Of a stretch of DNA of 64,000 nucleotides, positions 8,041 through 58,700 are shown in pieces (position 1 is the first letter of the stretch; each line of letters opens with the position of its first letter). A program made the position numbers and the translations under genes. The DNA lies in contig JACPGV010000002.1 of assembly GCA_016182385.1 (NCBI GenBank), positions 125,190 to 189,189 of the forward strand, given 5' to 3'. The notes below the pieces were generated by a model. It was not told where the DNA came from and did not search any database. It was given only the letters and a program-made list of their open reading frames with translations. The stretch comes from Candidatus Moraniibacteriota bacterium. Lineage in GTDB: Bacteria; Patescibacteriota; Minisyncoccia; Moranbacterales; UBA1568.

Positions 8041-9711
8041 TTAAGGATGATTTTTTATTGGTGGTAAAACGATGATATCGAAATCGCCCCCATTTCGTTC
8101 TGGTCCATTCATGTCAATATGTTTCGTGAAGGCATCGGGGTAGAAATTTTTGAATTGATCGGCGATAGTCTGATCATAATGAAGCATAAGAATAATACCC
8201 GGCTGGCGAAATTTTGTTTCTTGGTTGATAATTTCCAGATTAGCGACGCGTCCGTAGGTCAAAAAGTAGGTCGGATGCGCAAAAACGGGCAAATGAAATC
8301 GGTCGGTATTCCCGTTTTTATCGATGAGGAGATATTTGTGCGTTTCCGCGGGGAGTGTCAGTAAATAGCGCCCCATGTTGGTGTAGGTTTCATTGAAAGA
8401 GGCGGCCGCTTTCTCGCTTTTGGCAAAAAATACGAAATATTTTGTTAGGTTGAACAAAGCACTGGTTCCGAGGGCGATGGCAAGAAAGGAAAGAAAGATG
8501 ATGCGTGTTCCCCAAGGAGAGTGGAAGGCTTTTTTTACCATCCAAAAAGCGGCGAGACCAGCCAGAAGAAATACAGGTGTTTGGGTACCGATGGAGCGGA
8601 GCGCGTGAGGGAGGCCTTCATCGGTGAGAAACTCTGGTACAAGCATCGTAAAAAATATTCCTAAAAGAAAAACGTTGGTGACGAGCCGTGTGTCGCGATC
8701 TTTGTCTCGAAATCGTCGGCCGAAGAGTATTACGGTTTGCGAGACAATGAAAAGAAAGCCGGCGATGAAGAGCGCTCCCGTAATCGGATCCAAAATAGGG
8801 TAGGGAGGGTAGTTGTGTCGCCAGTTTTGATCACCAAAAAAATTGTATTTGATGAGCGATATGGAAAAGGTTTTGGCGAGTGTTCCCAAAAGATCGCCAT
8901 GATTGATTTGTGGAGAAAAAACAGAAATATGAGAAGAACGAGAAGCAAAATCGTCGGGGTGAGAGAGAAAAAAATGATAGAGCATTGGTGAAGCGGTCAG
9001 GAACGCGCCGAAAAGAAAAAGAGCGATATGTTTCCAAAAACGACTGAGGAAACATTCGTAAGAAAGCATGAGGACGGGTAGGAGGAGGATGAGAATAAGG
9101 GGCGCGACACGAAAAGCGATATAGGTGTGGAGACCAAGTCCGAATATGAGTCCGGCAAAAAGAAAATAAAGGGGTTTTTTGGTGCGTAAACCACGAAAAA
9201 GAAAATAGAAGGAAAAAGAAAGAAGAAACGTTGTCATGATCGCGCGGAAACCGATACGTGAAAAATTGATGGCCCAGTAAGAAGTGGCAAGCATGAACGC
9301 CGCCAGAAGCCCTACGCCACGCCGGTGAAAGAGCTCTTTACCAAGGAGATAGATTCCTAAAACCGAAAGGGTACCAAATATTGCCGACCAAAGCTTGAGG
9401 CCGAGAATGGTGTTGCCAAAGAAAGCGATGGAGAGTGCTTGGAGATTGATAAAAAAGCCCTCCCGACCGAAATTAGCCGGATAAAAAAGTTCAAACGTTT
9501 TGGTTTCCAGAGCATGAATGGCATCGACGCCGTTGGCCGCCTCATCAGGATAGATGCCTGCCGGGATATGTTCGATATCGTAGAGGCGAATAAAAAAAGC
9601 AAAAATAAGCAAAGCGACGAGAGAGATGATGGTACTGAGGCGGATTCTTTTCGAAGGAGAGAGAACACTCATATTATTTTTTTGTATCATTTCTTTTTTT
9701 GTTGGAAACAT
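8041..9711 (-). CDS. polytopic membrane glycosyltransferase, GT39/ArnT/PMT-like
   Basis: 556 aa; YPDEAANGVDAIHALETK... first-loop DE motif typical of ArnT/PMT family, many TM helices; tandem with the upstream paralog. Confidence 0.6.
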   Translation of the reverse strand: MFPTKKEMIQKNNMSVLSPSKRIRLSTIISLVALLIFAFFIRLYDIEHIPAGIYPDEAANGVDAIHALETKTFELFYPANFGREGFFINLQALSIAFFGNTILGLKLWSAIFGTLSVLGIYLLGKELFHRRGVGLLAAFMLATSYWAINFSRIGFRAIMTTFLLSFSFYFLFRGLRTKKPLYFLFAGLIFGLGLHTYIAFRVAPLILILLLPVLMLSYECFLSRFWKHIALFLFGAFLTASPMLYHFFLSHPDDFASRSSHISVFSPQINHGDLLGTLAKTFSISLIKYNFFGDQNWRHNYPPYPILDPITGALFIAGFLFIVSQTVILFGRRFRDKDRDTRLVTNVFLLGIFFTMLVPEFLTDEGLPHALRSIGTQTPVFLLAGLAAFWMVKKAFHSPWGTRIIFLSFLAIALGTSALFNLTKYFVFFAKSEKAAASFNETYTNMGRYLLTLPAETHKYLLIDKNGNTDRFHLPVFAHPTYFLTYGRVANLEIINQETKFRQPGIILMLHYDQTIADQFKNFYPDAFTKHIDMNGPERNGGDFDIIVLPPIKNHP

Positions 9712-9754
9712 GCTAAAATTATAGCAAAATTGTTATCAAAAAGAAAATAAAATA

Positions 9755-12700
9755 ATGCTTGAAAGATTCTTTAGGGGAAATGTTCGTAAAGATGCGACTG
9801 ACGATTCTCCCGGTGGCAGTGGGTCTCCGGAAAAAGAGGGCGCGATCGTTTTGTTGTCCCAGCAACCAGCTTCTTCTCAAGAGTGGCAGAATCAAAAAAA
9901 GAATTTTATTGTTCGCATTAGAGAAGTCGGCAAGAATGGTTTTCGTGTGGTTATTCATGATCGACGTCGAGGCGAAGACACGAGAGAAACGAAAGAAATG
10001 TCTCTTGATGCACTCAAAGCTCTTTTGTTGAGTGAGGGCTGTGCGCTTGTTGAGGCGCCTGTTGTGGCAAAGGTATCTCCGATAGCGCCTTTACCAACAC
10101 AAAAGGAAACCGTTGAGGAATCGCCCAAAAAAGAAAATGGAGAGAAAAACGTTTTGTTTGATCGGTTTTGTGCCATTGATGAAGAAATAAGGAAAAAAAC
10201 GGAAGAGGTAAGCGCTCTGATATCCGCGTTTCAGGGAAAAACCCTCCCGGAAAACGTAACAAACACTTATGAAAAGATATACGCGCGATACAGTGCTTTG
10301 GTTGACGAAAGCGACGCCTTCACGGAAGCAATAAACGCTCAGGATTCTCATACCGTCGATAAAGAAGCAGTAAAGCAACAAGAGAAATATTTACAAGGGT
10401 TTTCTCAGTGTGTGAATGATTTTTCTTCGTTGCGAGAGCAATTGAGCACTCAAGAGGTGCCATCAAGCGTTCCTTTGCCAAAAAAAACAACGGAGGGTGA
10501 TGACAAGATAAAAAGAGAGAAAAAAGAAGAACGTGTCTTGCGGGACTTTGAACAAAAAGTGATGTCTTTGCAAGAAGATTTTCGTCGCTCGATAGAAGAG
10601 GTCTCGGATATGGAAGGCCTTGTGGCGATTGGCACAAAAGAGTCACGGAGACGTATTTTTTTGGATAAGAAAGATCCGCAATGGAACGATGTTGCCAAAA
10701 AACTTTCACGCCCAGGAGCGGTTCAGGCAATGGCATTTCTTGAAGGAGTGAACAAGGAACTTCTTGATAGGTGGAAGAGAAAAAAAGAAGAATTGAAACA
10801 GCAATCGACACCTGTCAAAGAAACAAAAAAAAGAGGGAACCAGGAAGAGCCGGTAGTATCCGTGGTACCACAAGGAAAGGATGTTGTAAGGACAGCGAGC
10901 GTTCCTAAAAGATCAATGAGACGAAGAGGAGGAAAAGGAGGACAGGTGCCATTGGAGGACGCATCACAAGAACAAAATCCGGGAGAAAAGCAAAATGGAG
11001 CGGGAAAGAAGAAAGAGGGAGAAATCAACAAGGAATCAGCTAATGAAGAAGAAAAGACCCTGGCAGAGCTTACGAAGGCAAGGATTCTTTCTAACGAGGA
11101 TTTCATTCGTGGAGGTGCTCAGTATGTAAAAGATGATTCGGCAATCGATGGATTTCGATTGGATGTTACAGAAGAGCAAAAAAAAGCCGCGCAGGCGGAA
11201 ATGGAAAAAGAGCTTGCTGAAAAAGAGAAGCGCACAAAAGAACAAGAAGAACAGATGATGGGAAGTCGAGAGCTTTTTAAAGAGGAGCTTGTAAAAGGTG
11301 GCGCGGGTGTTTTTTATGATGAGAATGGTCAGGCGTTTATTGATCCGACAGCCGAACAAAGAGAAGCCTTGCAAAAAGAAGGCTCTCATCATCCTAGCAA
11401 GGTGGTAAAAAAAGAAGAAGAATTACTAGAGAAAAAGAATGGCGAAGGAGGTGGAGGTGATTTGTCGCCAGAAGAAAGAGAAAAAGGGGGAGAGGAGACA
11501 TTGTATGAGAAAATAGCGCGTCTTACCGAGGAGGTTGATACATTGAGAGAGAAATATATTAAAGAAGATTTTGAGCAAACGACGACGATGAAAAAACTAA
11601 AAAGTTTTTTTCGTTTGTCGGAAAATACGGCGGCACCGGAGCTTTCTTGGAGAAAATTGTATCAAGAAAAAATAAGGGAACTTCAGCGGGCAGAACTGCA
11701 AACGGTAGAAAGTGATACGGAGGATATTCATCGTTCCAAAGAAGATATTCAGGAAGGAAAGGGCCGATTGCTTGAGTATTATAGATTACAGGAGGCGATC
11801 AACGTTATTGACGCGCGTACAAAGTATCGCGCCGAATCAGAAACCTTTTTGGGAAAAGGTAAAGATGTTTTGATGGCGTTGGGAAGAAAATATAATGCTC
11901 TTTCTTTCAAGAAGAAGATGCTTCTTACCGGCGCGTTGACAGTGGGAGCGCTTGCTTCAGGCGGTATCGCTTCCGGTGCTTTGGCCGGAATGTTTATTGG
12001 AGTAAAAAGGGTATTGTCTGGCGCGGCGACAGCCGCCGGAACAGAAGCGTCTTGGGAAAAAATTTCTGAGAAGCGGAAGGCGTCGCAAGCGGAAAAGATA
12101 AAAAGGGAAATAGAAGAAAGGGTAGCGGGCGGAATGAACATGGAAGATTTGCAAAAAACTTTAGCGGAAGATGTTGGGACGGTTGATACAAAATTGCAAA
12201 AAGAGAAACGCGCGAAATCCTTTCGAAGAAGTGCTTCTCTTTTGGCTGGAGTGACGGTTGGTGGCGGAGGACTTTTGGCTGATGCTTTGATGACCGATCA
12301 TGTTTCGGAAGGGGTATCATCAAAGGAAATACTGCCGAAAGAGATGTCGCAAAACGTGATAGAAAAACCCGTTACCTCCTCCACGCCCTCTTTTTCTCTC
12401 GAACAAACGCTTGATGCGCGTGATAAGATGATAGGAGAAACAAGACGAGAGATTATTGACGAATTGGAGAGAGGAAACCAGGGTGTCGCTCAAGAAGCAC
12501 CTTCTTCGTCCTCATCAGTTTCTTCTCTTGAGCCCCTCATACGAGCTCATGAGGAGGTGACTCGTTCAGGAATGATACGGGGAGAGGAGACTCTTTTGGA
12601 AGAAAAACGAAACATCTTGCCGCAAACATCTGATGTGGCGGTAGAAACGAAAACATCTTTTGTAGAACAGACGCCTCGATTGCAAGCGCGCGCCGACAAT

Positions 12701-13036
12701 TGGTTCCAGCAGATTTTTCAGAGCGAGTACGTTTCTCCCGGGCAAGATGCTTTTTTTGATCGGCAAAAAATCGGCGGGACGAAACTTCTGGATATGATGC
12801 GTGATGCAAGATTGTACCGAGAAGGGTCTTTTTCTGGATATACCACAGGACTCAATGCTGAACAGATCAAAAGTTTCGCGGAGTTTTCCAAGAATACGGA
12901 AACGATAATTGGTCATCCTGCGATGAAAGAACTGTTACGCGCTCATCCCAATGCGACTATTGATGACTTTTTGAGGTCGGTGGCGCCACTTGTTCCTCGT
13001 GGGAAGCGGTTGGGACTTTTTACGACGGCAGTGTAA
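9755..13036 (+). CDS. giant hypothetical protein (1093 aa), E/K-rich coiled-coil with internal Gly/Ala-rich hydrophobic segments
   Basis: Long uninterrupted ORF, strongly charged low-complexity sequence (EEKK repeats), two hydrophobic G/A-rich stretches (LLTGALTVGALASGGIASGALAGMFIGV; LLAGVTVGGGGLLADAL) and a C-terminal approx 200 aa globular region. No recognisable enzymatic motif. Confidence 0.55.
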   Translation: MLERFFRGNVRKDATDDSPGGSGSPEKEGAIVLLSQQPASSQEWQNQKKNFIVRIREVGKNGFRVVIHDRRRGEDTRETKEMSLDALKALLLSEGCALVEAPVVAKVSPIAPLPTQKETVEESPKKENGEKNVLFDRFCAIDEEIRKKTEEVSALISAFQGKTLPENVTNTYEKIYARYSALVDESDAFTEAINAQDSHTVDKEAVKQQEKYLQGFSQCVNDFSSLREQLSTQEVPSSVPLPKKTTEGDDKIKREKKEERVLRDFEQKVMSLQEDFRRSIEEVSDMEGLVAIGTKESRRRIFLDKKDPQWNDVAKKLSRPGAVQAMAFLEGVNKELLDRWKRKKEELKQQSTPVKETKKRGNQEEPVVSVVPQGKDVVRTASVPKRSMRRRGGKGGQVPLEDASQEQNPGEKQNGAGKKKEGEINKESANEEEKTLAELTKARILSNEDFIRGGAQYVKDDSAIDGFRLDVTEEQKKAAQAEMEKELAEKEKRTKEQEEQMMGSRELFKEELVKGGAGVFYDENGQAFIDPTAEQREALQKEGSHHPSKVVKKEEELLEKKNGEGGGGDLSPEEREKGGEETLYEKIARLTEEVDTLREKYIKEDFEQTTTMKKLKSFFRLSENTAAPELSWRKLYQEKIRELQRAELQTVESDTEDIHRSKEDIQEGKGRLLEYYRLQEAINVIDARTKYRAESETFLGKGKDVLMALGRKYNALSFKKKMLLTGALTVGALASGGIASGALAGMFIGVKRVLSGAATAAGTEASWEKISEKRKASQAEKIKREIEERVAGGMNMEDLQKTLAEDVGTVDTKLQKEKRAKSFRRSASLLAGVTVGGGGLLADALMTDHVSEGVSSKEILPKEMSQNVIEKPVTSSTPSFSLEQTLDARDKMIGETRREIIDELERGNQGVAQEAPSSSSSVSSLEPLIRAHEEVTRSGMIRGEETLLEEKRNILPQTSDVAVETKTSFVEQTPRLQARADNWFQQIFQSEYVSPGQDAFFDRQKIGGTKLLDMMRDARLYREGSFSGYTTGLNAEQIKSFAEFSKNTETIIGHPAMKELLRAHPNATIDDFLRSVAPLVPRGKRLGLFTTAV

Positions 13037-13054
13037 TCTTTAACGTCTCTCTTT

Positions 13055-13363
13055 ATGGCACTTAATGAAAAAACATTGGAAAAAGATTTGATTGCAACAT
13101 TTCATCTGGAAGAATTACCCAAGGAAAAACAGCAGGCTCTGCTCGCTCGTATCGGTGAGGCTTTGTTGAGACGCGTTTTTTTGGAAACAATGGAAAAATT
13201 GGATACGGAAGACGTTGTTTTGTATGAGCGTTTGGTGAAAGAAAATGCGTCGCAAGAGCAAATGGAGACGTTTCTCGAGAATAAGATTCCGGGGTATAAT
13301 GTCTTTGTTCGTGGGGTGGTCGCGAAGTTTACCGAGGAAATGAAACGAGCGACGGCTCAGTGA
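13055..13363 (+). CDS. hypothetical protein (102 aa)
   Basis: ORF tightly spaced after the giant protein; helical, no known motif. Confidence 0.45.
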   Translation: MALNEKTLEKDLIATFHLEELPKEKQQALLARIGEALLRRVFLETMEKLDTEDVVLYERLVKENASQEQMETFLENKIPGYNVFVRGVVAKFTEEMKRATAQ

Positions 13364-13399
13364 GCGGAGAATTATTGATAATGAGTAACATGAGCATTT

Positions 13400-13828
13400 A
13401 TGGTTGAAGAAATTATTGGTGGAGAAAATGAGACGTTTTCGGAGAATCCAGAAAAGAATCCGAGAGAAGATATAATAGGAGGAGAGGTGATGTCGATACC
13501 AGAACAGGAACCTTCTTCTGAGGGCGCAAGTGAACAAGTAGAAACGAAGCTTGATACGCTACTTGCCAAACAATCTTCTTCTAGTGTGTCGGGGAGCACT
13601 CATGATGACGGCGTGGTCGCGATGGATGCCAAAAGTGTCGACGTGATGACCGATGAGGAGAGTAAGATACAGATGCTTTTGGATTTGGCGAGTACGAAGG
13701 GCGTGGTGCATGCCGTGAAGGTGGCGCGTAAGTTGAATGATTATTACGCTTTGGATTGCATGCATGATGAGCTTGTAGATAAGTTCTATGATGGTCTTTT
13801 GGAGCGGGGATTGATAGAAAAAGAATAG
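13400..13828 (+). CDS. hypothetical acidic protein (142 aa)
   Basis: ORF directly upstream of the ATPase gene, same strand, acidic composition. Confidence 0.45.
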   Translation: MVEEIIGGENETFSENPEKNPREDIIGGEVMSIPEQEPSSEGASEQVETKLDTLLAKQSSSSVSGSTHDDGVVAMDAKSVDVMTDEESKIQMLLDLASTKGVVHAVKVARKLNDYYALDCMHDELVDKFYDGLLERGLIEKE

Positions 13829-13870
13829 AGGACCACAGGGAGGGGTCATATAAAAACAAAAGAGCGTATT

Positions 13871-16360
13871 ATGGAGGGCTTTGATTTGAATATTTTTTTG
13901 GTGCCATTGACATCGTTACTGGCTTTGATAGCTCTTATAAGCGGTGCATTTTTGGTGGCCCGCAGTTTTTTTCGTTTTCGTTATCAAATCAATCAATCCA
14001 TGAATATGGATCTTGAGGTGATACGAGTAACGCATAAAGAAGTGCCTGAGGGACAGTCCCGCGAACAAAGCGCTGAAGCATGGAAAGAGGAAATTTTTGC
14101 TATGGAACGACTACTTTCTTCTTTGGCCGTACTCAAACCAAAGGGGGGTATGTGGAAAAGTTTGTTTTTTGATACTCCGACTATTATTTTTGAAATAGCC
14201 AATCCTTCTTCGAGCGAAGAAATTTCTTTTTATTTAAGTTTGCCGAAACGTTTTCGAGAAAGCGCGGAAAAACAAATTCATAGTTTTTTTCCGCAAGCCG
14301 TTATTGAAAAGATACCGGACTACACCATTTTTTCTCCGCAGAGCTTCACAGCCTTATCGGTGCTTACGCTCAAGTACAGTCACGCGCTTCCTTTGCGAAC
14401 CTATCGTATGGTTGACGTTGATCCTTTGAATGAGATTTCTAATGCGTTGAGTAAATTGAACACCATTGAGGAGGGTGCCGCCATTCAGTTGGTGTTGACG
14501 CGCGTTGGTTCGGGCTGGCGTAAAAAGGGGAAAGCCATCGCTCAAAAAATGCAGGAGGGAAAACGCTTGAAGGACGCCCAGTCTTCTTCTGTTGCTAAAG
14601 AATTGGCAGCAGAAATGGGTAAAGGGATGGTGGGGGCCTTGGCCGGAAGAAAAAAAGAATCTCTTCCTGAAGAAAAAAAGGTAGTAGCGCTTACACCGGA
14701 GGAACAAGAATTGTTGAAGTCGATTGATGAAAAAACAAACAAAAATGCTTTTCGGGTTAATATTCGTCTCATCGCTTCGGCAACTACGGAAGAACGAGCG
14801 GAGGAGATTCTTTCTCACATGGAAAATGCTTTTGGCCAATTTGAAAATCCAGAAGTAAATATGTTTCGCGTGAAGCATCGTAGTAAAAACAAACGTTCCG
14901 TGTATGATTATATTTTTCGTAATTTTGATGATGATGTTGAGATGACACTTACGGTTGATGAAATCGCCAGTATTTTTCATTTTCCCATTTCTACGACAAA
15001 AACACCGAAAATAAAATGGCTGAAAGCCGGAGCCGCGCCACCGCCGGTCAATATTCCAAATGAAGGAGCGTTGCTTGGTTTTAACGATTATCGTGGAACG
15101 AAAACCGATATCCGTATCACGGATAATGATCGTCGTCGGCATATGTACGTGATCGGACAAACCGGTGTCGGTAAATCGAATTATTTGCAAGAAATGGCGA
15201 AAAAAGATGCCAAATCCGGCAGAGGATTTTGTTTTATCGATCCTCATGGTGATGCCATTGAAGATATTTTGACAGCCATTCCCAAAGAGCGTGCCGAAGA
15301 TGTTATTGTATTTGATCCCGCGGATATTGGTCGCCCGATCGGTATCAATATGCTGGAATATGATCCGGAACATCCCGAGCAAAAAACATTCGTTATCAAT
15401 GAAATGATTGGTATTTTCGATCAATTGTATGATTTGAAAGCGACTGGTGGTCCGATGTTTGAACAATACATGAGAAATGCCATGCTCCTTATTATGGAAG
15501 ATCCGGAAAGTGGTTCGACACTTTTGGAAATATCGAAAGTGCTCGCTGATGAAGATTTTCGTCGTTATAAGCTTGAAAAATGTTCCAATCCTATAGTGCG
15601 CGATTTTTGGATTAAGGAGGCGGAAAAGGCTGGGGGAGAGGCGGCACTTGCCAATATGGTGCCGTACATTACATCCAAGTTAACAGCTTTTATCAGTAAT
15701 GATATGATGCGGCCGATCATTGCCCAACAAAAAAGCACGATTGATTTTCGAGAGATTATGGATGGTGGAAAGATTTTGCTCATCAATCTTTCCAAGGGAA
15801 AAATCGGAGAAATTAATGCCCGATTGCTTGGTATGGTTGTGGTAGGGAAGATTTTAATGGCGGCGCTTTCCCGTGTCAATACACCGGAAAATGAGCGACG
15901 CGATTTTTATCTTTATCTGGACGAGTTCCAAAACGTTACAACCACGTCTATTGCTCAAATTCTTTCAGAAGCCCGCAAATATCGTCTCGTTCTTATTTTG
16001 GCACACCAGTTTATCGGACAATTGAAAGAAGAAATATCAAAAGCGGTTTTTGGCAATGTTGGCTCTCTGGTGTCATTCCGCGTTGGACCGGAAGACGCGG
16101 AGTTTCTTGAAAAACAATTCGCCCCTGTTTTTACCGCGAGCGATATCATGAATGTCGATAATTACAATTGTTTTGTGCGACTTCTTATGAATAATGAGTT
16201 GACCAAGCCATTCAATATGAAGACATATCCGCCAACCCTTGGAAATCAAGAAATAGCGAACGCGCTGAAAGAACTTTCTCGTTTGCGTTATGGTCGTGAT
16301 GCCGCGATTGTAAACCGGGAAATCATGAGTCGTATCAAGTTGACCGAACGATTGCAATGA
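13871..16360 (+). CDS. membrane-anchored VirB4/VirD4(TraG)-family type IV secretion/conjugation ATPase
   Basis: 829 aa; N-terminal TM helix; Walker A VIGQTGVGKSNYL followed by FIDPHGD (DPKGE-like box of TraG/VirD4/VirB4), Walker B FYLYLDEFQNV, and ILAHQFIGQL (conserved Q..QL box of coupling proteins). Confidence 0.7.
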   Translation: MEGFDLNIFLVPLTSLLALIALISGAFLVARSFFRFRYQINQSMNMDLEVIRVTHKEVPEGQSREQSAEAWKEEIFAMERLLSSLAVLKPKGGMWKSLFFDTPTIIFEIANPSSSEEISFYLSLPKRFRESAEKQIHSFFPQAVIEKIPDYTIFSPQSFTALSVLTLKYSHALPLRTYRMVDVDPLNEISNALSKLNTIEEGAAIQLVLTRVGSGWRKKGKAIAQKMQEGKRLKDAQSSSVAKELAAEMGKGMVGALAGRKKESLPEEKKVVALTPEEQELLKSIDEKTNKNAFRVNIRLIASATTEERAEEILSHMENAFGQFENPEVNMFRVKHRSKNKRSVYDYIFRNFDDDVEMTLTVDEIASIFHFPISTTKTPKIKWLKAGAAPPPVNIPNEGALLGFNDYRGTKTDIRITDNDRRRHMYVIGQTGVGKSNYLQEMAKKDAKSGRGFCFIDPHGDAIEDILTAIPKERAEDVIVFDPADIGRPIGINMLEYDPEHPEQKTFVINEMIGIFDQLYDLKATGGPMFEQYMRNAMLLIMEDPESGSTLLEISKVLADEDFRRYKLEKCSNPIVRDFWIKEAEKAGGEAALANMVPYITSKLTAFISNDMMRPIIAQQKSTIDFREIMDGGKILLINLSKGKIGEINARLLGMVVVGKILMAALSRVNTPENERRDFYLYLDEFQNVTTTSIAQILSEARKYRLVLILAHQFIGQLKEEISKAVFGNVGSLVSFRVGPEDAEFLEKQFAPVFTASDIMNVDNYNCFVRLLMNNELTKPFNMKTYPPTLGNQEIANALKELSRLRYGRDAAIVNREIMSRIKLTERLQ

Positions 16361-16464
16361 GAGGAGCGGAACTGTTTTGGCCGAAGGAGAGACATTGATA
16401 ATTTTTTGTAGCAAAAAACACGCTAAGGAGAGAGGCGTGTTTTTTTGAAATGTAAAGAAGGATT

Positions 16465-18927
16465 TTATTCCTGAATCTCAATTTTAAAGGAGAGAAGGGT
16501 ATGATTGGTCATAATGAAGAGTTCGTTGTTTTTTTCGTTGACGACAAAAGAGAGGGCATCAGGAATTTTTTCTAATGAATACCGACGGAAGAGGGTTCCA
16601 TCTTGGCGGAAAATATAAAACATTTTCTGTGAAGCATCGAGAGCGTAGATATGCGTGAGATCTGGCGCGGTAAAGAGGGTCGTGAGAGTAAAAGGGGTGT
16701 CCGGTAAAGAAAACCGTGTGACGAGACGTCCCCGGAAAAAAGAAGAAAGGGTATTATCGGGACAAGAAAGAAAGAGTGTTTCGTGAATGGCGAATGTCGC
16801 GTTGTCTTCACAGGAAGTCTTTTCTTTGAGCCAAAAAGAGGCAGTGCCGAAACCGCCCGTAGCTCGTGGAAAGCGATAGATCTGATCGTGCGCGCTATCG
16901 AGGGCGTAAAGATACGTGAGGTATGTTCCGATGCTTTGAATATCAGCCCCTTCAGGGATATCCAGGTTGTTTTTGGTAAAGGCGTGAGTGATGGAGCTGA
17001 AAGAATAAAGTTCTTTTTTTGTGGTATAGAGGAAAATGAGACTCAGATCGTCCATAGCTGTCGCGAGACGGATAGTTCCGTTTTCTCTTGGAAAGGAATA
17101 TGTTTTTTGCTCACGGAGACTGAAAACAGTATTTTCGCCGATACCGTAAACTTCGTTATCGAGGAGGACTATTTTAATGAAAGGCGCTTCTTGAGTGGCG
17201 AGAGTGGAACCGTTTTCCAGGGAAGGAAATTTTTTATTATTTAGAGAAGAAAGAGATTCTATAGTTTCTTCATTTTCTAGAATTGTGTTCGGTGTTTCTT
17301 TTGTTGTTGCGGGACGTGTTGTCAGGAAAAAAAGAGTAAGAGAGAGAAGGGAAAGGAAGATCACTACAGAAAAAAATATTTTTTTCTGTAGTGGTGAGAG
17401 GGCGATATAACGAAGAGAAAGCGTTCGAAAGAGAACGCGTAAATGAAAAAGGAGCTTGTTTGAGACGTTTCCCAATTTGCGCCGAGCGATAGCGAGAGAA
17501 AGGAGAAGCTGGTTGGATATGCCGGGAGTTATTTTTTTCTGGTTATTTTTTTGATAGAAGGAGGCTATTTTTTCTTTGAGAAAATCAGGCGTTTCTGGAA
17601 TTGTTGCGGGATCAATCATTGTTACGGAATCAGTCGGAGAGAAAGAAGGTTCTTCGGATATTTTTTCGATTATTGAAGAATCTTTCTTGAGATGACGGAG
17701 AAAAGAGGTTGTTTTGACTTTCTCTTGTGCTACAAGAATGTTTTTTTGCCATTTTTTCTTCAAAAAACGTCCTGTGTTGCGTGAAACGAGAAAGAGTTTT
17801 TCCGTTCCTTGATAAAGAGAGAGTGAACCCTGTTTGCCTACTTTGCGAAAAAATCTTTTTTGTCCGGCAAAAAAATCATTAAACGCGTGAAGAATATTTT
17901 GAAAAAAGAGTGACAACCGCTCGATTGACGGATGTGATGCCGAAGAATCAGGAGTGTTCCCGTGCACATAAATATGTCCGGTTTTTGAATCAATATAATC
18001 CTTTGGTAAGGGGTCTTTTTCTTCTGGAGCGTTTTCCGCTGTTGCGATAGATGTAGGGGATTTTTCAATAAAAGTAGCGTTACTGAAGGCATTCATTACT
18101 GAAGCGTCTTGACGCGTTTCGGAAGAGTGTTTTTTGGGGGATTCTTGAATAATTTTTTCCTCGCAATCGATGATAAAAATACCGCTTCTATCAAGCTCGT
18201 TGGTAATGGCTGTACGTAAAAATTGAGCAAATTGCTCTTTATTCATGCGAGCGACTTGTTTTTCTAGAAGATCGAGAGGAAGTAGGGAGAGGGGTTCGGG
18301 AGAAGTAAAAATAATCTTATCTTCCGGCAAAAGTCTCCCACTCGAAACCTCGACGAAAGTTTTTATGGGGTGTGAAGAGGATTCTTCTGACGCAAGGCCA
18401 ACGCTTATTTCCGAGAGGGTGCCATTACGTGATAATAAAATAGTCCCTTGGCCGGTAACGGAAAAATGAATATTGTTTTTTTCGATTATTCCGAGAGTCC
18501 CGTGAAGTTTTCCAAGCCAAGAAATGTTTCCGTGTTTGACAAGCTCGGCCAGGGCGAGATTTATTTTATGGAGGGCGGCTTCGAAACTTTCGATGGCGCC
18601 GCGACGGGGGTTATTGAAATATTCTTTGCGAGCGACTGAGGAAAGGAAATTGACGATATACGCGGCATCTTCACTTTTTTCGGTTATTTCAAAAATTCCT
18701 ATGAGCGTACCTAAAGACGCGGCGACGACGTTTTCTCCGCTATAATGGAACGTTTTGATAAAAGGTTCATAGGAGCGATTGCCGACGACGAGAATTTCGG
18801 TAATCTCTTTTTCGATCTCTGTGAGAACCTTTGGTTTTTCTTGGCGTTTTTTCTCCGACATAACACGGGCAAAACAAGTCAAAACAATAGAAAGAGATTT
18901 TTCTTCAAACCTCTCACAGTATACCAT
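16465..18927 (-). CDS. hypothetical bitopic membrane protein (820 aa) with C-terminal repeat (beta-propeller-like) domain
   Basis: Long ORF, central TM helix (IFFSVVIFLSLLSLTLFFLTT), C-terminal repeats of the type IYALDSA/IYRF, FYIFRQDG; convergent with the ATPase gene. Confidence 0.5.
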   Translation of the reverse strand: MVYCERFEEKSLSIVLTCFARVMSEKKRQEKPKVLTEIEKEITEILVVGNRSYEPFIKTFHYSGENVVAASLGTLIGIFEITEKSEDAAYIVNFLSSVARKEYFNNPRRGAIESFEAALHKINLALAELVKHGNISWLGKLHGTLGIIEKNNIHFSVTGQGTILLSRNGTLSEISVGLASEESSSHPIKTFVEVSSGRLLPEDKIIFTSPEPLSLLPLDLLEKQVARMNKEQFAQFLRTAITNELDRSGIFIIDCEEKIIQESPKKHSSETRQDASVMNAFSNATFIEKSPTSIATAENAPEEKDPLPKDYIDSKTGHIYVHGNTPDSSASHPSIERLSLFFQNILHAFNDFFAGQKRFFRKVGKQGSLSLYQGTEKLFLVSRNTGRFLKKKWQKNILVAQEKVKTTSFLRHLKKDSSIIEKISEEPSFSPTDSVTMIDPATIPETPDFLKEKIASFYQKNNQKKITPGISNQLLLSLAIARRKLGNVSNKLLFHLRVLFRTLSLRYIALSPLQKKIFFSVVIFLSLLSLTLFFLTTRPATTKETPNTILENEETIESLSSLNNKKFPSLENGSTLATQEAPFIKIVLLDNEVYGIGENTVFSLREQKTYSFPRENGTIRLATAMDDLSLIFLYTTKKELYSFSSITHAFTKNNLDIPEGADIQSIGTYLTYLYALDSAHDQIYRFPRATGGFGTASFWLKEKTSCEDNATFAIHETLFLSCPDNTLSSFFRGRLVTRFSLPDTPFTLTTLFTAPDLTHIYALDASQKMFYIFRQDGTLFRRYSLEKIPDALSFVVNEKNNELFIMTNHTLLSFKIEIQE

Positions 18928-19082
18928 AAAAAAGCTCTTTGCAGAGAGCTTTTATGTCAAAAGGAGCGATTGTTTCGTAAGAGGGAGAAAAAGGCGTTTT
19001 TTTGACTTCTCGTGCCCTTTTTTTTATACTGTCAGAGAGGCTTATTTTTTTATTTCTTATTTCCCTAACGAAAGAAAACCCT

Positions 19083-19688
19083 ATGTCGCTTGTTTTGTTC
19101 GATGCTCTGTTTGGCTCCAAGGCTCGTTCTCGTCTTATTCGATTTTTTCTTTTGAACCCCGGCACAGAGTTTTTTGCGGCCGATATTTCCGAAAAAACGT
19201 TGGTATCAAGACATGAGGTAGCGCGAGAACTTTTGCGTTTGGCAAAAATCAAACTTATCATCGCTCGTTCTCGAAAAGGAAAGAAGGGTTTTATTGTTAA
19301 CGAAGAATTTCCATTTTATACGGAACTCAAAAGCCTTGTGTCCAAGCTCAACGTGCACGCACAATCACAAGTGTTTCGCAAATTAAAAATAGTTGGTGAA
19401 GTAAAACTCATTCTTATTAGTGGATTGTTTTTGAATTATCCCAAAAGTAAGGTGGATATGATTTTGGTTGTGAATAACGTCAATCGGGCGAAGTTGCGTC
19501 AAGCGATAACACATCTGGAAGCGGAAGTAGGCAAGGAAATCCGGTTTGTTCTTATGAGCAGTGAAGAGCTGCATTATCGTCTCAATATGTTGGATCGTTT
19601 TTTTATAGAATTTTTGGAGGGACCGTATGAAGAAGTGGTCAATCGTATACCGGAGTTGAAACGTTTTATTGCCGGATTGAAGAAATAG
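19083..19688 (+). CDS. hypothetical protein with N-terminal winged-helix-like segment
   Basis: Start chosen at MSLVLFDALFGSKARSRLIRFFLLNPG...; region resembles wHTH (ArsR/MarR-like) DNA-binding fold; rest unassigned. Confidence 0.45.
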   Translation: MSLVLFDALFGSKARSRLIRFFLLNPGTEFFAADISEKTLVSRHEVARELLRLAKIKLIIARSRKGKKGFIVNEEFPFYTELKSLVSKLNVHAQSQVFRKLKIVGEVKLILISGLFLNYPKSKVDMILVVNNVNRAKLRQAITHLEAEVGKEIRFVLMSSEELHYRLNMLDRFFIEFLEGPYEEVVNRIPELKRFIAGLKK

Positions 19689-43809: not shown

Positions 43810-44005
43810 AGGGAGTAAATGGTGTACATGTTACTTGTATCTTCGGATAGAAGTAACCAAGAGTTGAGAGTCAATCTCAAATTCTTAACCAATTATGGTC
43901 GCTCATTACGATTTAGTTGTCAGCGTTTCGACAAAGACAACCGTAGTAATGAAACATAATTTAGAGTTACGTAATAGAAGGACTAGCCGCAAAAGTTTGT
44001 GAATA

Positions 44006-44036
44006 AAAAACACCTTTTATTTGAGGTGTTTTTTGT
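44006..44036 (+). terminator. rho-independent terminator downstream of 16S (AAAAAACACCTTTTATTTGAGGTGTTTTTTGTTTT)
   Basis: Hairpin CACCT..AGGTG with flanking A- and T-tracts about 200 nt after the 16S 3' end. Confidence 0.65.
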
Positions 44037-44278
44037 TTTAGTTTGCTGGAAAATGAGTTAATTCGTTTTGGATAAAAAGAGTGCTTGCTTATGGTTTCGA
44101 AAGAACGACTAGAAAAATTTAAACAACTTTTTTAATATGATCTAATATAGTCAAAATATAAGGAAAAATGATATAAAAATTATGGCTTATTATAAACATA
44201 TATATAAAAAATTGAATACATTATTGATTTATTATATCAAAAATGATATAATTAAGGTATAAAAATGATATAAAACTT

Positions 44279-45346
44279 ATGCCAAAAATTACCAGCAATA
44301 AACTAAACGAACGGCAAAACGTTATATTAGTTTTTATCGAAGACAGTAAATCTGTTTCAATTGGACAGATTTTTGAGCATATCCAAAATGGTTTTGAGAA
44401 GATTACGAGGATAACTGTTTCAAGAGATTTGGAAAAATTGCTAAACATCAATTTAATTGAAAAACAAGGAAAATCAAAAAGAACTATCGTTTATCGGATT
44501 TCGTCCCAGTATTCGATGCTGAAAAAAATTGATGTTGAAAAATATTTTGCTCAAGATGTTGACCAACGAAAAATCAGAGAAACTTTTAACTTTGATATTT
44601 TTAGTCAATTGAAAGATATTTTCACTGAGACTGAAAAAAACAGACTCTCAGAGCTGAATGATATTTACCGAGATAAGATAAAGGACATTGCACCAGATGC
44701 TTTTAGAAAGGAAATTGAGAGACTAAATATCGATTTTAGCTGGAAGTCTTCCAAGATTGAGGGTAATACTTACAGTTTGCTAGAAACCGAACAGCTTATC
44801 AAAAACCAGCAAGAAGCCTCAGGTCATACCAAGGAGGAGGCCGTGATGATTTTGAATCACAAGAAGACTCTGGACTATATTGGAAATAATAAAAAGGATT
44901 TCCAATTGGTATCTGTTGCTAAGATTGAAAATGTCCATTCTTTTCTGGTAGATGGTTTGAACGTGACCAAAAATTTGAGAAAAAGTTTGGTAGGAATAAC
45001 TGGCACGAATTACAAGCCATTGGATAATGAATTCCAAATCAGAGAGGCTTTAGAAAAGACTTGTCAAACAGTCAATGAAACAAAAAACGTTTTTGAAAAA
45101 GCGGTGATTTTGATGTTGCTTATCGCATATATCCAGCCGTTTGTTGATGGCAATAAAAGAACGAGTCGTTTAAGTGGCAATGCCGTTTTGCAATCGTTTG
45201 ATTCCTGTCCGCTTTCGTATCGCAGTATGGACGAAATTGAATACAAAAAGGCGATTTTACTATTCTATGAGCAGAATAATATCTCATACTTCAAGGAATT
45301 GTTCTTGAAGCAGTTTGAGTTTGCTGTGGAAAATTACTTCGGATGA
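44279..45346 (+). CDS. HTH-Fic/DOC family protein with degenerate Fic motif (QPFVDGNKRTSR instead of HPFx[DE]GNGRxxR)
   Basis: 355 aa; N-terminal wHTH (ITRITVSRDLEKLLNINLIEK), central Fic core ...AVILMLLIAYIQPFVDGNKRTSRLSGNAVL; coding GC is much lower (about 33-35%) than surrounding genes. Confidence 0.75.
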   Translation: MPKITSNKLNERQNVILVFIEDSKSVSIGQIFEHIQNGFEKITRITVSRDLEKLLNINLIEKQGKSKRTIVYRISSQYSMLKKIDVEKYFAQDVDQRKIRETFNFDIFSQLKDIFTETEKNRLSELNDIYRDKIKDIAPDAFRKEIERLNIDFSWKSSKIEGNTYSLLETEQLIKNQQEASGHTKEEAVMILNHKKTLDYIGNNKKDFQLVSVAKIENVHSFLVDGLNVTKNLRKSLVGITGTNYKPLDNEFQIREALEKTCQTVNETKNVFEKAVILMLLIAYIQPFVDGNKRTSRLSGNAVLQSFDSCPLSYRSMDEIEYKKAILLFYEQNNISYFKELFLKQFEFAVENYFG

Positions 45347-45437
45347 AAACAAAAAAATTCCTAAAGGTTTTTTTATCTATTCGAACATAATCAATGTTAT
45401 ATTGTTGGTGAATAATACCTCAATATGAAACAGTGAT

Positions 45438-46382
45438 ATGAATCAGGAAAAATTGGGGAGAAAACTGGTCAAAGGGGAATTATTTGATTTGATGTTATAT
45501 AGAGCGCTTCAGAAACAAACGCGAGGTGATCTGGCGAGTCTTTTTGATGAACTCATTCCCGTGGAGGAGCGACATTATGCTTTTTGGGAAAATTTTTTTC
45601 AGATACATGATATTCGTTTGAGTTTGTTGGATCGATTTCGAATCTGGTTTTTCAAGTTTTTTTGTCGGATATTTGGGACAGCAGGAGTCAATCTTCTTCT
45701 TGAAGCGATAGAAATCAATGGTATAAAAAAATATCTCGCGGTTTGGGAGCTGTATAAAAATGAACCAGTAGGGGTTGCTGTTCGTAACATTCTTGACGAT
45801 GAGTTTCGTCATGAAGACGCGATTATTTCTGATAAGATTGATCGAAAAATTCACCCGGAAAGAATTAGAAATGTTTTTTTGGGATTAAATGATGGTTTGG
45901 TAGAAATTCTCGGCGCGGTAAGTGGATTTTTTATAGCGTTTCAAACACTTCCTCTGGTATTGGTGGCGTCATGTACCGTGGCCATCGCAGGTGCGTTTTC
46001 AATGGCGGCCGGCGCTTTTGTGGCTGTTGGAGCAGAACGTGAAGCAGAAGGAGTAGAAAGAAGTAAAAAACGATACTTAGGAGAAGGAGAGGAAAATACG
46101 CGGTCGGAGCGTCCTTTAGGGGCAGCAATCTTGGTTGGCGCCTCATATCTTTTTGGGGCGGCAATACCGATTGTACCAGTGTTTTTTGGATCGGAAAGTG
46201 TGGTTGTATCAATGGTTGTTTCTGGTATTATCGTTTCCATTGTATCGATGATCCTTTCTTTTCTTTCCGGCATGGATATAAGGCGTCGTGTAGCTACCAA
46301 TCTCGTTATCATTGCTCTTGCCGTTGGCGTGACGGCATTTATTGGATATGGAGCGCGATTATTGTTTGGTGTAGAAGTGTAA
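45438..46382 (+). CDS. VIT1/CCC1 family Fe/Mn transporter with N-terminal ferritin-like (rubrerythrin-like) domain
   Basis: 314 aa; N-terminal ferritin-like helices (EERHYAFWENFF..., DDEFRHEDAII), then GLNDGLVEILGAVSGF and 4-5 TM helices typical of VIT1. Confidence 0.7.
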   Translation: MNQEKLGRKLVKGELFDLMLYRALQKQTRGDLASLFDELIPVEERHYAFWENFFQIHDIRLSLLDRFRIWFFKFFCRIFGTAGVNLLLEAIEINGIKKYLAVWELYKNEPVGVAVRNILDDEFRHEDAIISDKIDRKIHPERIRNVFLGLNDGLVEILGAVSGFFIAFQTLPLVLVASCTVAIAGAFSMAAGAFVAVGAEREAEGVERSKKRYLGEGEENTRSERPLGAAILVGASYLFGAAIPIVPVFFGSESVVVSMVVSGIIVSIVSMILSFLSGMDIRRRVATNLVIIALAVGVTAFIGYGARLLFGVEV

Positions 46383-55748: not shown

Positions 55749-58700
55749 TTAGTTTTGTAATGATGCCAGATGATTTTTGATATCAAGAAGCTGTTTTTGC
55801 GATTCTTTGAGTTTGCCGTGTTTTGTTTCGATGATTTCTTTTTTAGCGCGTTCGATAAAGTTTTTGTTCGAGAGTTTGGCTTCGAGTGTCGCGATATATT
55901 TTTCTTTTTCGTCTTTTTCTTTTGTGAAGCGCGCCCGTTCTTTGGCGATATCGACGACGCCATCGAGATGAAGGAAAGCAGAGAGGAGTCCGTATTGGAC
56001 GCGAAGAGTGTTTTTCGGCGCGACAGCGCTTTTGAGTGTTTGAAGTTTATCGATGCGCGCGAGACGTTTGAAAATTTCTTCGTTGCCACGAAGGGTTTGT
56101 TCGGACTCGCCGAAAGCGCTCACAGTCATCTTTTGTGCCGGATCGATATGGTAAGCCGCGCGGACATTGCGGATAGTCGAGATGAGTCCTTTCACGAGCT
56201 CGAAGCGATTTTCCGTGGCGATTTCAAGTTTTGTCGTATCGAATTCTGGCCACTTGGCGATCATCAGAAATTCGTTCGTATCGAAATGGAACGTCTGGTG
56301 TATGGCTTCGGTGACGAACGGCATAAAGGGATGCCAGAGTTTGAGGATTTTGTCGAAAGCGTAGCGGAGCAGGGCATCGTTTTTCTCGACCTTGTGCACT
56401 TCGACATACCAGTCGGCGAAATCACCCCAAGTGAACTCGCGGAGCTCTTCGGCGGCGAGCGAAAGCTCGTAGCGTTCGAGGTGGCGTGTGATGTCGCGGA
56501 CGATCGCGTGGAGTTTTTTTATCAGGTACTGGTCTGCATCCGTCTTTGGCTCTGGCGGCGTATTCGTTTTTTCTGTCATGGTGCCGACATAACGCGCGAG
56601 ATTCCAAAGCTTGTTGGTGAAATTACGCATCATAACGATCTTTTCATCTGAGAGCCTGAGATCGTTGCCGGGTGTTGAACCGGAAATAAGTGCCATACGA
56701 AGCGCGTCAGCACCGTATTTTTCTGAAACCGTGAGCGGGTCGATTACGTTGCCGAGACTTTTACTCATCTTGCGACCCTGTTCGTCGCGGACGAGGCCGT
56801 GAAGATAGATGGTGTCGAAAGGGTGTGTGTCGAGGAGATATTCCGTCATAAGAATCATCCGTGCCACCCAGAAAAAGAGGATGTCATAGCCGGTTTCGAG
56901 GAGACTGGTCGGATGATAATTTTTGAAATCAACCGCGTTTTCATCTGGCCAGCCGAGCGTTGAGAACGTCCACAATCCCGACGAGAACCACGTATCGAGC
57001 GTATCAGGATCTTGTTCAAAGAAATGATGGCCACAATATTCGCATGGCTTGAGAATATCAATAGAAAGCGGAGTGGCATTCGGGAACCTTTTGATGTTCA
57101 TGATGGATTCTGGTGTAACACCTTGTATTTTTCTCCAGAGTGCGCGCAGTACGGCTCCATGGCTCGTTATGAGCACGTTTTTATGGGAATGTTTTTCAAG
57201 ATGTTCCGAGACTGCTTTCCAGATTCTGTTTTCTGCCTCCTCATAACTTTCATTATTAGCGGATTTTCCATTGTATTTTTGGAGATCTGGGAATCGTTTT
57301 TTCGTTTCTGAATATGATAGGCCTTCGGCTTTGCCCATATTTCTTTCTTGGAGACGGTCATCAATGATGATTTCATCCACTCCTATTTTTTTACCGATGA
57401 TTTTGGCTGTTTCGTGTGCTCGAGAAAGGTGTGAGCTGAAGATAACTCCGATATTTTCAGCGGCGAGTTTTTCTGCTGTAAGACGTGCCTGTTCGCGTCC
57501 GGTTTCGTTGAGCGGAATATCAGTGGTTCCGGCGTTGATTTCTTTCTTGTTCCAATCTGTTTCTCCATGGCGCACAAAAAACCATCGGGACTTTACGGTT
57601 GCGTTGATGCGTTCTTTTTTGCAGGAGAGACAGTACCACACGGGAATGCGATGGCCGAACCAAATCTGGCGTGAGATACACCAGTCGCGGAGATTGTCGA
57701 TCCAGTGGAAGTATGTTTTGGAGAATCGTTCGGGGAGAAGAGTAATTTTTCCTGGCCCGACGGCTTCGCGCATCAGTTGTTTGAGTGTCGTCTTTTTTCC
57801 ACTATGGTCGAATTCTTTGTTCACCGCTACGAACCATTGGCGCATCGGGATGATTTCGAGTACGTCTTCGTAGCGATCGCTTGTCCCGACGTTTTGTGTG
57901 ATGTCTTCTTCTTTCTCAATGAGATCGTTCTCACGGAGCCAGAGGACGAATTTTTCACGCGCTTCGAGTGTTGTGAGGTGGGCATAGTCTTGGCCCGCTT
58001 CGGCCGTCATGGTTCCGTCAGTGTCGATGACTTGGATGAGATCGATTTCTGGATGACGCTCACGCATTTCGAAATCGGCATGACTGTGGGCGGGTGTGAC
58101 GCCGACCGCGCCGGTACCAAACGCGGGGTCGACGGATTCGTCCGCGATGATTTTGATTGCAAGCGGTTTGGCGGAGCCTACGTCGGCAGTGAATGTTTGC
58201 CCGATGTATTTTTTGTAACGTTCGTCATCCGGATGGACAGCGATAGCCGTATCGCCGAGCTTGGTTTCGGGACGGGTGGTCGCGATGGCGATAGGAAAAT
58301 TTTTCGAGTAGCGGAAGGTATAGAGTTTTGCTTGCCGTTCAATAGTGACGACCTCATCGTCGGAACAGGTGGACTGCCCCTTGATCGTCCAGTTGACGAC
58401 ACGATAACCGCGGTAGATGAGTCCGTCATCATACATTTTTTTGAAGGCGGTACGGACAGAAAGACTGCGTTTTTCATCGAGTGTGTAGGCTTCGCGCGAC
58501 CAGTCGAGTGACGCGCCCATTTTTTTGGTCTGATGGACGATCGTGTCGTGACTTTGCTGAGCAAATGTTTCAATACGTTTCAAAAATTCTTCCCGACCGA
58601 GATCGAAGCGGGTTTTTTGTTCTTCTTTCCAAAGAATGTTTTCCACTTTGCTTTGTGTGGCGACAGCGGCGTGGTCAGTGCCGGGGATCCAAAGTGTCCG

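Follow-up and report, generated by a model that had tools for sequence, protein, structure and literature searches.

The stretch of DNA analysed here (the window: 64,000 nucleotides (nt), positions 125,190 to 189,189 of contig JACPGV010000002.1, assembly GCA_016182385.1) is a core-chromosome segment of Candidatus Moranbacteria, which belong to the Patescibacteria or Candidate Phyla Radiation (CPR). It contains an operon with a core of three to four genes, encoding a highly charged protein of 1093 amino acids (aa; the giant), a 102-aa DUF5663 protein, a 142-aa partner protein, and an 829-aa ATPase of a DUF8128 subtype. Judged from profile matches and a predicted structure, the ATPase is a VirD4/TrwB-type coupling protein (type IV coupling protein, T4CP), a branch of the FtsK-HerA superfamily, and profile comparisons show that it descends from, or shares ancestry with, the coupling proteins of conjugation. 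We suggest, with somewhat less than even confidence, that it acts as an ATP-driven hexameric translocase and is the missing coupling protein of the Patescibacteria type IV secretion system (T4SS), which is encoded elsewhere. The four operon genes are co-directional (9755-16360, with gaps of 18, 36, and 42 nt) and an 820-aa gene is convergent to them; all five open reading frames (ORFs) lie exactly where an initial annotation of the window had put them. A Logan contig shows the same order of genes.

The ATPase is 100% identical to the NCBI entry 'DUF87 domain-containing protein [Candidatus Moranbacteria bacterium]'. It scores above the Pfam gathering cut-offs for TrwB_AAD_bind (33.7 bits against 20.5), TraG-D_C (26.4 bits against 22), and DUF87 (26.5 bits), the last match being restricted to the P-loop region that is common to the superfamily. 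Among 24 diverse representatives of the family (30-50% identity), TrwB_AAD_bind, TraG-D_C, and DUF87 are each matched by 23, T4SS-DNA_transf by 13, AAA_10 by six (weakly), and HerA_C by three. In a search of PDB sequences DotL and TrwB come out on top and HerA is weaker. A precomputed match to PF26449 (DUF8128) at E<=1e-5 is recorded for the ATPase and all listed homologues; a profile of this N-terminal domain finds no match in PDB sequences or in the local copy of Pfam, which lacks the PF26449 model. All motifs quoted in the initial annotation are found, and 82 homologues with 40-83% identity share the key residues without exception: G429, G432, G434, K435, D457, P458, H459, G460, D684, E685, R702, K703, Q713, and Q717.

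An AlphaFold2 model (m530db3a1fb70; mean pLDDT 85.4), for which the 82-sequence alignment served as input, predicts a long N-terminal helix (residues 6-44), an alpha/beta N-domain (~46-370), a RecA-like domain, and a block of seven helices (504-608). In the model this block falls between Walker A and Walker B and corresponds to the all-alpha domain of T4CPs. When the model is compared with the PDB by Foldseek, TrwB is found with E 4e-13 (TMt 0.63-0.66, root-mean-square deviation (rmsd) ~5 Å) and Cag-beta with TMt 0.57, while HerA gives TMt 0.52-0.55 with an rmsd of 14-15 Å. The best E-value (5e-16) belongs to TrwK/VirB4 over ~920 near-global columns, yet its TM score is just 0.30, a value that could come from the ATPase domain alone. 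TrwK resembles the ATPase in its two-domain build and its length, but homology in sequence fails. The ATPase has no CagE_TrbE_VirB or AAA_10 match, and hhalign against the VirB4 of a Bacillus plasmid gives a probability below 3% both for the whole protein (2.9%) and for the N-domain (1.0%). The initial annotation had assigned the ATPase to the VirB4/VirD4 superfamily; of this the VirD4/TrwB half stands and the VirB4 half is dropped. HerA is likewise rejected (HerA_C E 0.042, 12.9 bits against a cut-off of 22). Pfam, PDB sequence matches, the model, Foldseek, and hhalign thus agree in pointing to a T4CP type and not to VirB4, FtsK, or HerA.

In common with TrwB of R388, VirD4/Cag-beta, TraD, and DotL, the ATPase has a RecA-like domain, a predicted all-alpha insertion, a predicted membrane anchor, and the Walker A/B, IDPxGD, and Q-box motifs. 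Sequence identity to these classical T4CPs is 15-18%. The ATPase differs from them in three ways: its anchor is one strong N-terminal helix (residues 8-30) where they have two, an extra domain of ~330 aa (DUF8128) lies between anchor and ATPase domain, and it is unlinked to a relaxase or T4SS. Because the residues after the membrane helix are rich in R and K, the rest of the protein should be cytoplasmic by the positive-inside rule.

Closer relatives are found outside the CPR on mobile elements. A tblastn search of plasmids with the ATPase domain gives 289 records (including Streptomyces 104 and Bacillus 62, plus haloarchaea and Sulfolobus). The 27.5-kb B. subtilis plasmid NZ_CP154917 encodes its homologue, an 885-aa 'DUF87 domain-containing protein', as the first gene of a conjugation operon; a replication-relaxation family protein, conjugal transfer proteins, and VirB4 (AAA_10, E 8e-116) come after it. 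hhalign of the CPR family profile against this 885-aa protein gives 100% probability (E 6e-45) over 676 columns, DUF8128 included. The Embleya linear plasmid NZ_CP108778 has the order PrgI, 'ATP-binding protein', homologue (WP_331738717), replication-relaxation protein, NlpC/P60. Large Bacillus phages also carry full-length homologues (PHROG 5156, E 9e-89; tblastn covers 85-93% of the query), and in phage vB_BanS-Thrax4 a replication-relaxation protein directly follows the homologue UUV46674. The shared replication-relaxation neighbours thus mark DUF8128-T4CPs as the coupling-position proteins of a class of mobile elements in Gram-positive bacteria. These relatives have the same two-domain architecture (DUF8128 plus T4CP ATPase) and catalytic motifs as the CPR ATPase and are 22-30% identical to it. 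They sit on mobile elements with the replication-relaxation protein directly after them, accompanied in the plasmids by VirB4, PrgI, and a hydrolase, whereas the CPR gene sits on the core chromosome without a relaxase and with small partners of its own. The aligned Bacillus 885-aa protein, unlike the CPR ATPase, has no N-terminal membrane helix.

The phages with full-length DUF8128-T4CPs include Tsamsa-like phages, SP-10, and phage G. The Thrax4 gene (9045-12649 of the record) lies in a plasmid-like module with ParM, an M23 peptidase, the replication-relaxation protein, a tyrosine recombinase, and a replication initiator.

In the CPR the ATPase family is large and strongly conserved. Clustered at 50% identity, it has 22,139 representatives for a threshold of E<=1e-3 and 5,853 for E<=1e-30; the full-length matches extend to identities as low as 34%. 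Named members come from Moranbacteria, Pacebacteria, Doudnabacteria, Kerfeldbacteria, and Saccharimonadales. The locus is collinear in 80 GTDB species-representative Moranbacteria-like genomes, in which the ATPase is 66-82% identical. This identity and the 5,853 representatives mean that the locus is no chance occurrence. By median identity to the window proteins the ATPase (70%) ranks second among 14 local genes, after a 228-aa gene (73%) and before RmuC (62%), the MraY-like transferase (48%), the 142-aa partner (43%), HolB (42%), the DUF5663 protein (40%), the 820-aa protein (39%), the FtsQ-like protein (32%), and the giant (29%). These values show that very strong purifying selection acts on the ATPase. 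Longer family members (1040-2006 aa) carry extensions that are all free of Pfam matches. Two of them, P0181 and P0185 (1422 and 1842 aa), which group with named relatives from Saccharimonadales, have disordered C-terminal tails rich in Pro, Ala, Ser, and Gln of ~600 and ~1000 aa, and a conserved motif, PGEVY(I/V)DE(D/T)GNV, closes both tails.

The genes upstream of the ATPase are kept with it. The 142-aa partner has an acidic low-complexity N-terminal half and a conserved helical C-terminal domain of ~60 aa. Its jackhmmer family is found in 84 of the 91 ATPase-anchored sources, with a median gap of 48 nt to the ATPase start, and it lies directly 5' of the ATPase in five contexts outside Moranbacteria (L084, L086, L087, L089, and L090). 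The reverse holds as well: when metagenomes are scanned with the C-terminal domain of the partner, the ATPase follows on the same strand 13-360 nt downstream, without exception among the loci whose sequence extends at least ~215 nt further in that direction. Doudnabacteria-like and Kerfeldbacteria-like genomes and Saccharimonadales have a different small upstream ORF of the same build, with a disordered N-terminal half and a short helical C-terminus. A small ORF is always directly upstream of the CPR ATPase, and we propose that the 142-aa protein is an adaptor or regulator of the ATPase.

The 102-aa protein is, by profile and jackhmmer matches, a member of the DUF5663 family. Against the Pfam model (PF18908, ~84 positions) it scores 19.5 bits (E 1.5e-3), under the cut-off of 23.7; a precomputed DUF5663 match is on record, and the ORFs annotated as DUF5663 that occupy the same operon position in Doudnabacteria (L082) and Pacebacteria (L084) are joined to it by jackhmmer at E 3e-21 and E 1e-19, respectively. 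The family is present in 69 of the 91 sources. Synteny outside Moranbacteria, which the initial annotation had named as a check, therefore holds for both small genes.

The giant is a candidate membrane scaffold. The description in the initial annotation of an E/K-rich protein with Gly/Ala-rich hydrophobic segments agrees with its composition (E 12.4%, K 9.6%, 34% charged residues); just the first of the two segments (residues 722-750) exceeds a Kyte-Doolittle value of 1.6. It evolves fast and is conserved only in a core of about residues 560-860, where the motifs LREKY (596-606) and RKYNAL (711-716) precede both hydrophobic segments. No match to the giant is found in Pfam, NCBIfam, PADLOC, PHROG, or PDB sequences. 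Its jackhmmer family occurs in 60 of the 91 sources, and in each of them it precedes the ATPase operon. In Doudnabacteria (1019 aa), L088 (>1070 aa), Pacebacteria (393 aa), and L090 (615 aa) the same position is taken by a large charged protein with two hydrophobic segments rich in Gly and Ala. Outside Moranbacteria, homology is significant for L090 only; the core compared with the Doudnabacteria 1019-aa and Pacebacteria 393-aa proteins by hhalign gives probabilities of 23% and 2%, which are not significant.

Two observations concern the giant and its surroundings. The divergent start codons of a PMT_2 glycosyltransferase (9711, minus strand) and of the giant (9755) are 43 nt apart, and a promoter scan of 9712-9754 finds a single promoter-like site, on the minus strand (9739-9710). 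The true start of the giant gene may be downstream of 9755. In Saccharimonadales the gene after the ATPase (L175:11108-11689, minus strand) encodes a 193-aa protein with an E/K-rich N-terminus and then Gly/Ala-rich hydrophobic segments, built like the core of the Moranbacteria giant. It is the positional equivalent of the non-essential SEML1_0143 of Candidatus Southlakia epibionticum.

For this last bacterium, transposon sequencing (Tn-seq) data have been published, and the supplementary tables contain two T4CP-like genes (Wang et al. 2023, PMC10633639). SEML1_0142 (1019 aa, 'TraM recognition domain-containing protein') is classed ES/ES/ES, with 114 insertion sites in the input and 11/11/9 at T0/T1/T2. 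SEML1_0293 (921 aa, 'T4SS DNA-binding domain-containing protein') is classed NE/NE/NE, with 82 sites and then 87/120/110. SEML1_0141 (139 aa, hypothetical; GD/ES/ES, 9 sites and then 0/0/0) lies 13 nt upstream of SEML1_0142, and SEML1_0140 (117 aa, hypothetical; NE/GD/GD, 8 sites and then 8/7/5) lies before it. The window has the same layout of two small ORFs and the ATPase. Among the DUF8128 ATPases, a clade from Saccharimonadales (about 1000-1036 aa) shares 40% identity with the window ATPase over residues 10-823, and its neighbourhood is that of SEML1_0138-0144, with a ComM-like gene upstream, small ORFs directly upstream, and the 193-aa gene on the reverse strand downstream. In a neighbor-joining tree without bootstrap this clade falls within the main CPR radiation alongside the Moranbacteria clade, and two more basal groups are candidates for a second paralogue. 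From the identity of this clade, the shared synteny, and the tree we infer that SEML1_0142 is the counterpart of the window ATPase. SEML1_0293 has strong T4CP Pfam matches. Quinonero-Coronel et al. (2025, PMC12102498) cite just one homologue, a non-essential 't4cp', which is presumably this gene. SEML1_0142 and SEML1_0141 are unnamed in the main text of PMC10633639, and neither paper describes DUF8128 or the conserved partners, or remarks that one paralogue is essential and the other is not.

Conservation of a housekeeping kind and membership of the same superfamily as FtsK would also fit a DNA pump that handles the chromosome, that is, a membrane-anchored FtsK/SpoIIIE-like translocase in segregation or division. 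Class I essentiality and the core replication and division genes nearby (holB and ftsQ here; dnaX, dnaB, recR, or gyrBA in other classes) are in line with such a role, and the long Pro/Gln-rich tails of some Saccharimonadales members recall FtsK linkers. The neighbourhood varies between classes, however, so that the linkage to replication genes is non-specific. FtsK_SpoIIIE is unmatched by the window protein and matched weakly by four of the 24 relatives, FtsK is absent among the 50 Foldseek matches listed, and the model predicts a T4CP all-alpha insertion in place of the alpha, beta, and gamma domains of FtsK. FtsK is moreover reported in transcriptome papers on Saccharibacteria TM7x, which also counts against the pump. 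We regard this role as improbable. The initial annotation had set FtsK/HerA against VirB4/VirD4 as the alternatives for profile searches, and TrwB_AAD_bind and TraG-D_C, both above their cut-offs, place the ATPase on the VirD4 side.

Another explanation is that the locus is left over from a prophage or an integrated conjugative element, or encodes a defence ATPase of HerA or mad8 type, without a core role in the cell. The full-length PHROG 5156 match and the homologues in Bacillus phages and plasmids are in its favour, as are a PADLOC match to mad8 (E 9e-14) and the weak HerA matches. Against these stand the vertical inheritance of a collinear locus in 80 species genomes at 66-82% identity, flanks made up of ribosomal, tRNA-synthetase, and cell-envelope genes, and the essentiality of the Southlakia counterpart; no integrase, relaxase, other mad gene, or other defence gene lies nearby. 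On genomic context and conservation both the defence and the prophage version are rejected, and a core-less remnant has hardly any probability left.

The preferred role as a coupling protein is best seen beside what is published on Patescibacteria. Quinonero-Coronel et al. (PMC12102498) counted 5,713 T4CP (VirD4-type) homologues in 2,918 of 3,035 genomes, just 148 of them near virB4. The VirB4 cluster is usually elsewhere, near dnaA, and is found in ~80% of assemblies. Homologues remote from virB4 are therefore already known. The window gene, chromosomal and remote from virB4, is most likely among those counted, which are annotated in the same terms (DUF87, TraM-recognition, T4SS DNA-binding domain). 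The T4SS cluster of Southlakia has no recognisable coupling protein (PMC10633639).

We propose the following mechanism. The ATPase would form a membrane-tethered cytoplasmic hexamer that binds a macromolecular substrate (a protein, possibly DNA), possibly through the small helical partner. The hexamer would use ATP to drive this substrate into a channel of the envelope, with the small upstream protein as an adaptor or regulator, by analogy with CagZ for Cag-beta and TraM for TraD; DUF5663 and the giant Gly/Ala-rich membrane protein would be accessory or scaffold subunits. The cagZ gene adjoins that of Cag-beta, and TraD binds TraM. A PDB entry met in the Foldseek results, 8dol, is Cag-beta in complex with its regulator CagZ. 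The channel served would be the VirB4-type T4SS of Patescibacteria, which has its own cluster without a recognisable coupling protein, and the function would be indispensable, as for the syntenic SEML1_0142 and SEML1_0141. This channel is favoured because all interpretable relatives are coupling proteins, because the CPR T4SS cluster has no coupling protein of its own, and because T4SS genes and the likely Southlakia counterpart are both essential.

Several points weigh against this assignment. In the 64-kb window no ORF has the size or the Pfam signature of VirB4, and the ORFs scanned include no relaxase, pilin, or VirB6; the initial annotation had likewise recognised no relaxase or pilin. 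T4SS-like neighbours within ±8-10 kb are missing in 10 of 11 CPR contexts outside Moranbacteria. The exception is Pacebacteria L084, with a T4SS_pilin (115 aa) and a 1027-aa Amidase_2/SpoIID protein downstream of the ATPase. The NCBIfam T4CP equivalogs (TraD, TraG, VirD4, and CD1115) are all far under their cut-offs, and the ATPase therefore lies outside the specific TraD, TraG, and CD1115 subfamilies. The small upstream proteins of different CPR classes have no detectable homology with one another. The link between SEML1_0142 and the window rests on synteny, size, annotation name, and the unbootstrapped tree, and not on the sequence of SEML1_0142. Finally, SEML1_0142 is already 'ES' when the first Tn-seq sample is taken and most T4SS genes are classed 'GD', which may signal an additional or different role.

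In L084 (12815-18481) the order is ATPase, two Pfam-free proteins of 118 and 599 aa, T4SS_pilin, and the Amidase_2/SpoIID protein.

The initial annotation had considered that the locus itself might be a highly reduced or divergent T4SS or conjugation machine, with the 820-aa protein as a part. A T4CP-family ATPase beside membrane proteins with no assigned function and no better annotation would be expected of such a machine. VirB4, the defining T4SS component, is missing from the window, however, and a separate VirB4 cluster is present in ~80% of Patescibacteria assemblies (PMC12102498). A complete MPF-FATA T4SS cluster (VirB4, VirB3/PrgI, VirB6, VirB8, and cell-wall hydrolase) has no match among the scanned ORFs of the window, and the 820-aa gene goes with the 228-aa gene and not with the ATPase. 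What the locus holds is a coupling-type ATPase with its partners on the core chromosome, and a reduced T4SS at this place is very improbable.

A T4SS-independent translocation machine specific to the CPR is the more serious competitor, although we hold it to be unlikely. Here the ATPase, the small partner, DUF5663, and the giant would form an export or import apparatus of their own, with a layout that may be likened to T7SS-like systems of ATPase, large scaffold, and small helical proteins, or to an archaeal Ced-type DNA importer. That the operon partners are kept with the ATPase and T4SS genes are not agrees with this, as do weak NCBIfam matches to CedD and CedB and the more immediate essentiality class of SEML1_0142 compared with most T4SS genes. 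Exaptation of T4CPs is left possible by Quinonero-Coronel et al. (PMC12102498). Yet every characterisable relative outside the CPR adjoins a relaxase-like gene, to which the Bacillus and Embleya plasmids add conjugation genes; the phages could represent mobilisation in trans. The operon has no product that can be identified as a channel former, the hydrophobic segments of the giant are weak, and its homology across CPR classes is not significant. Note that the higher prevalence of T4CP than of VirB4 in Patescibacteria genomes (96% and 80%; PMC12102498) is no evidence of independence, because two T4CP paralogues, each detected in ~80%, would give it. The fuller statement that these four proteins make up an essential, CPR-wide, VirB4-independent translocation machine descended from a conjugative coupling protein seems to us rather less likely still.

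CPR bacteria are host-dependent, and their T4SS is essential with a gene cluster that lacks a coupling protein. The locus is a concrete candidate for the receptor of this system: a domesticated coupling ATPase with dedicated partners. If the ATPase is the T4SS receptor, the partners should lead directly to the substrate that is transported; if it acts by itself, it would represent a new system for secretion or uptake in the largest radiation of uncultivated bacteria. Either can be tested in Southlakia, the one genetically tractable CPR bacterium, in which the likely counterpart and its small upstream partner are essential in published tables and undiscussed in the paper (PMC10633639). To our knowledge, within the literature searched, in which no papers on DUF8128 or DUF5663 were found, four things are new: that the ATPase is of a DUF8128 subtype linked to replication-relaxation elements, that it has conserved operon partners, how strongly it is conserved, and its connection to the essential Southlakia gene pair.

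Table 1. Coordinates in the window of the operon genes, their domains and motifs, and the convergent neighbour
Feature	Position	Strand	Basis
Giant, 1093-aa E/K-rich protein	9755..13036	+	ORF
Giant, conserved core, residues 560-860	11432..12334	+	occupancy and identity profile of the alignment
Giant, Gly/Ala-rich hydrophobic segment 1, residues 722-750	11918-12004	+	composition
Giant, Gly/Ala-rich hydrophobic segment 2, residues 826-846	12230-12292	+	composition
102-aa helical protein, DUF5663 family (by profile)	13055..13363	+	Pfam, jackhmmer
142-aa partner protein	13400..13828	+	jackhmmer family, adjacency to ATPase
142-aa partner, helical C-terminal domain, residues 76-142	13625-13825	+	conservation
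829-aa DUF8128 + T4CP (VirD4/TrwB-type) ATPase, membrane-anchored (predicted)	13871..16360	+	Pfam, model
ATPase, N-terminal membrane helix, residues 8-30	13892..13960	+	hydropathy 2.34; model helix 6-44
ATPase, DUF8128 alpha/beta domain, residues ~46-370	14006..14980	+	precomputed PF26449 match
ATPase, RecA-like domain	15068..16240	+	motifs, model, Foldseek
Walker A GQTGVGKS, residues 429-436	15155-15178	+	script
IDPHGD motif (FIDPHGD, residues 455-461)	15233-15253	+	script
All-alpha insertion (predicted), residues 504-608	15380-15694	+	model
Walker B FYLYLDEFQNV, residues 679-689	15905-15937	+	script
R702/K703 arginine-finger region (EARKYRL, residues 700-706)	15968-15988	+	script
Q-box ILAHQFIGQL, residues 709-718	15995-16024	+	script
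820-aa bitopic protein, neighbour	16465..18927	-	ORF

The 820-aa gene probably stands outside the ATPase unit, although the initial annotation had counted it in the cluster. Its product is bitopic, as described there, with one strong membrane helix (residues 517-537) and a conserved cytoplasmic N-domain (residues ~60-250). Apart from weak matches of its C-terminal part to NHL or PknD-sensor-like beta-propellers (E 0.01-0.1), it has no match in Pfam, NCBIfam, PADLOC, PHROG, or PDB. In Moranbacteria the gene lies close to the ATPase at 60 of 81 loci; the DNA inserted between the two varies (0-6.6 kb) and in some genomes consists of miscellaneous sequence. Outside Moranbacteria it is found once (L089), 6 kb from the ATPase and adjoining a homologue of the 228-aa gene. 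It is treated as a separate unit because it is paired there with the 228-aa gene and not with the ATPase. The 228-aa gene (19002-19688, plus strand), the most conserved local gene, keeps its 820-aa neighbour where both have left the ATPase (L089). Its product matches the PADLOC candidate defence family PDC-M05A (E 3.7e-21), and its listed TTG start probably adds a spurious hydrophobic N-terminus.

The near flanks of the locus encode a glycosyltransferase, the DNA polymerase III delta' subunit (holB), an FtsQ-like protein, two PMT_2 glycosyltransferases, RmuC, and a MraY/WecA-like transferase. More distant genes of the window include those for ribosomal proteins, RpoA, valyl-tRNA synthetase (ValRS), and TsaD. 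GC skew is positive (0.08-0.27) in all 2-kb bins of 1-64000 irrespective of gene orientation, and the cumulative skew climbs throughout; the entire window therefore lies on one replichore, without an origin or terminus. A Fic-domain protein (44279-45346, plus strand; E 1.3e-13) is encoded inside the only low-GC patch of the window (44001-46000, GC 0.33 against about 0.43 elsewhere), which suggests recently acquired DNA. The ValRS gene (55749-58949, minus strand) encodes 1066 aa with a complete His_Phos_1 domain (residues 457-625, E 1.4e-47), which sits between two stretches matching tRNA-synt_1.

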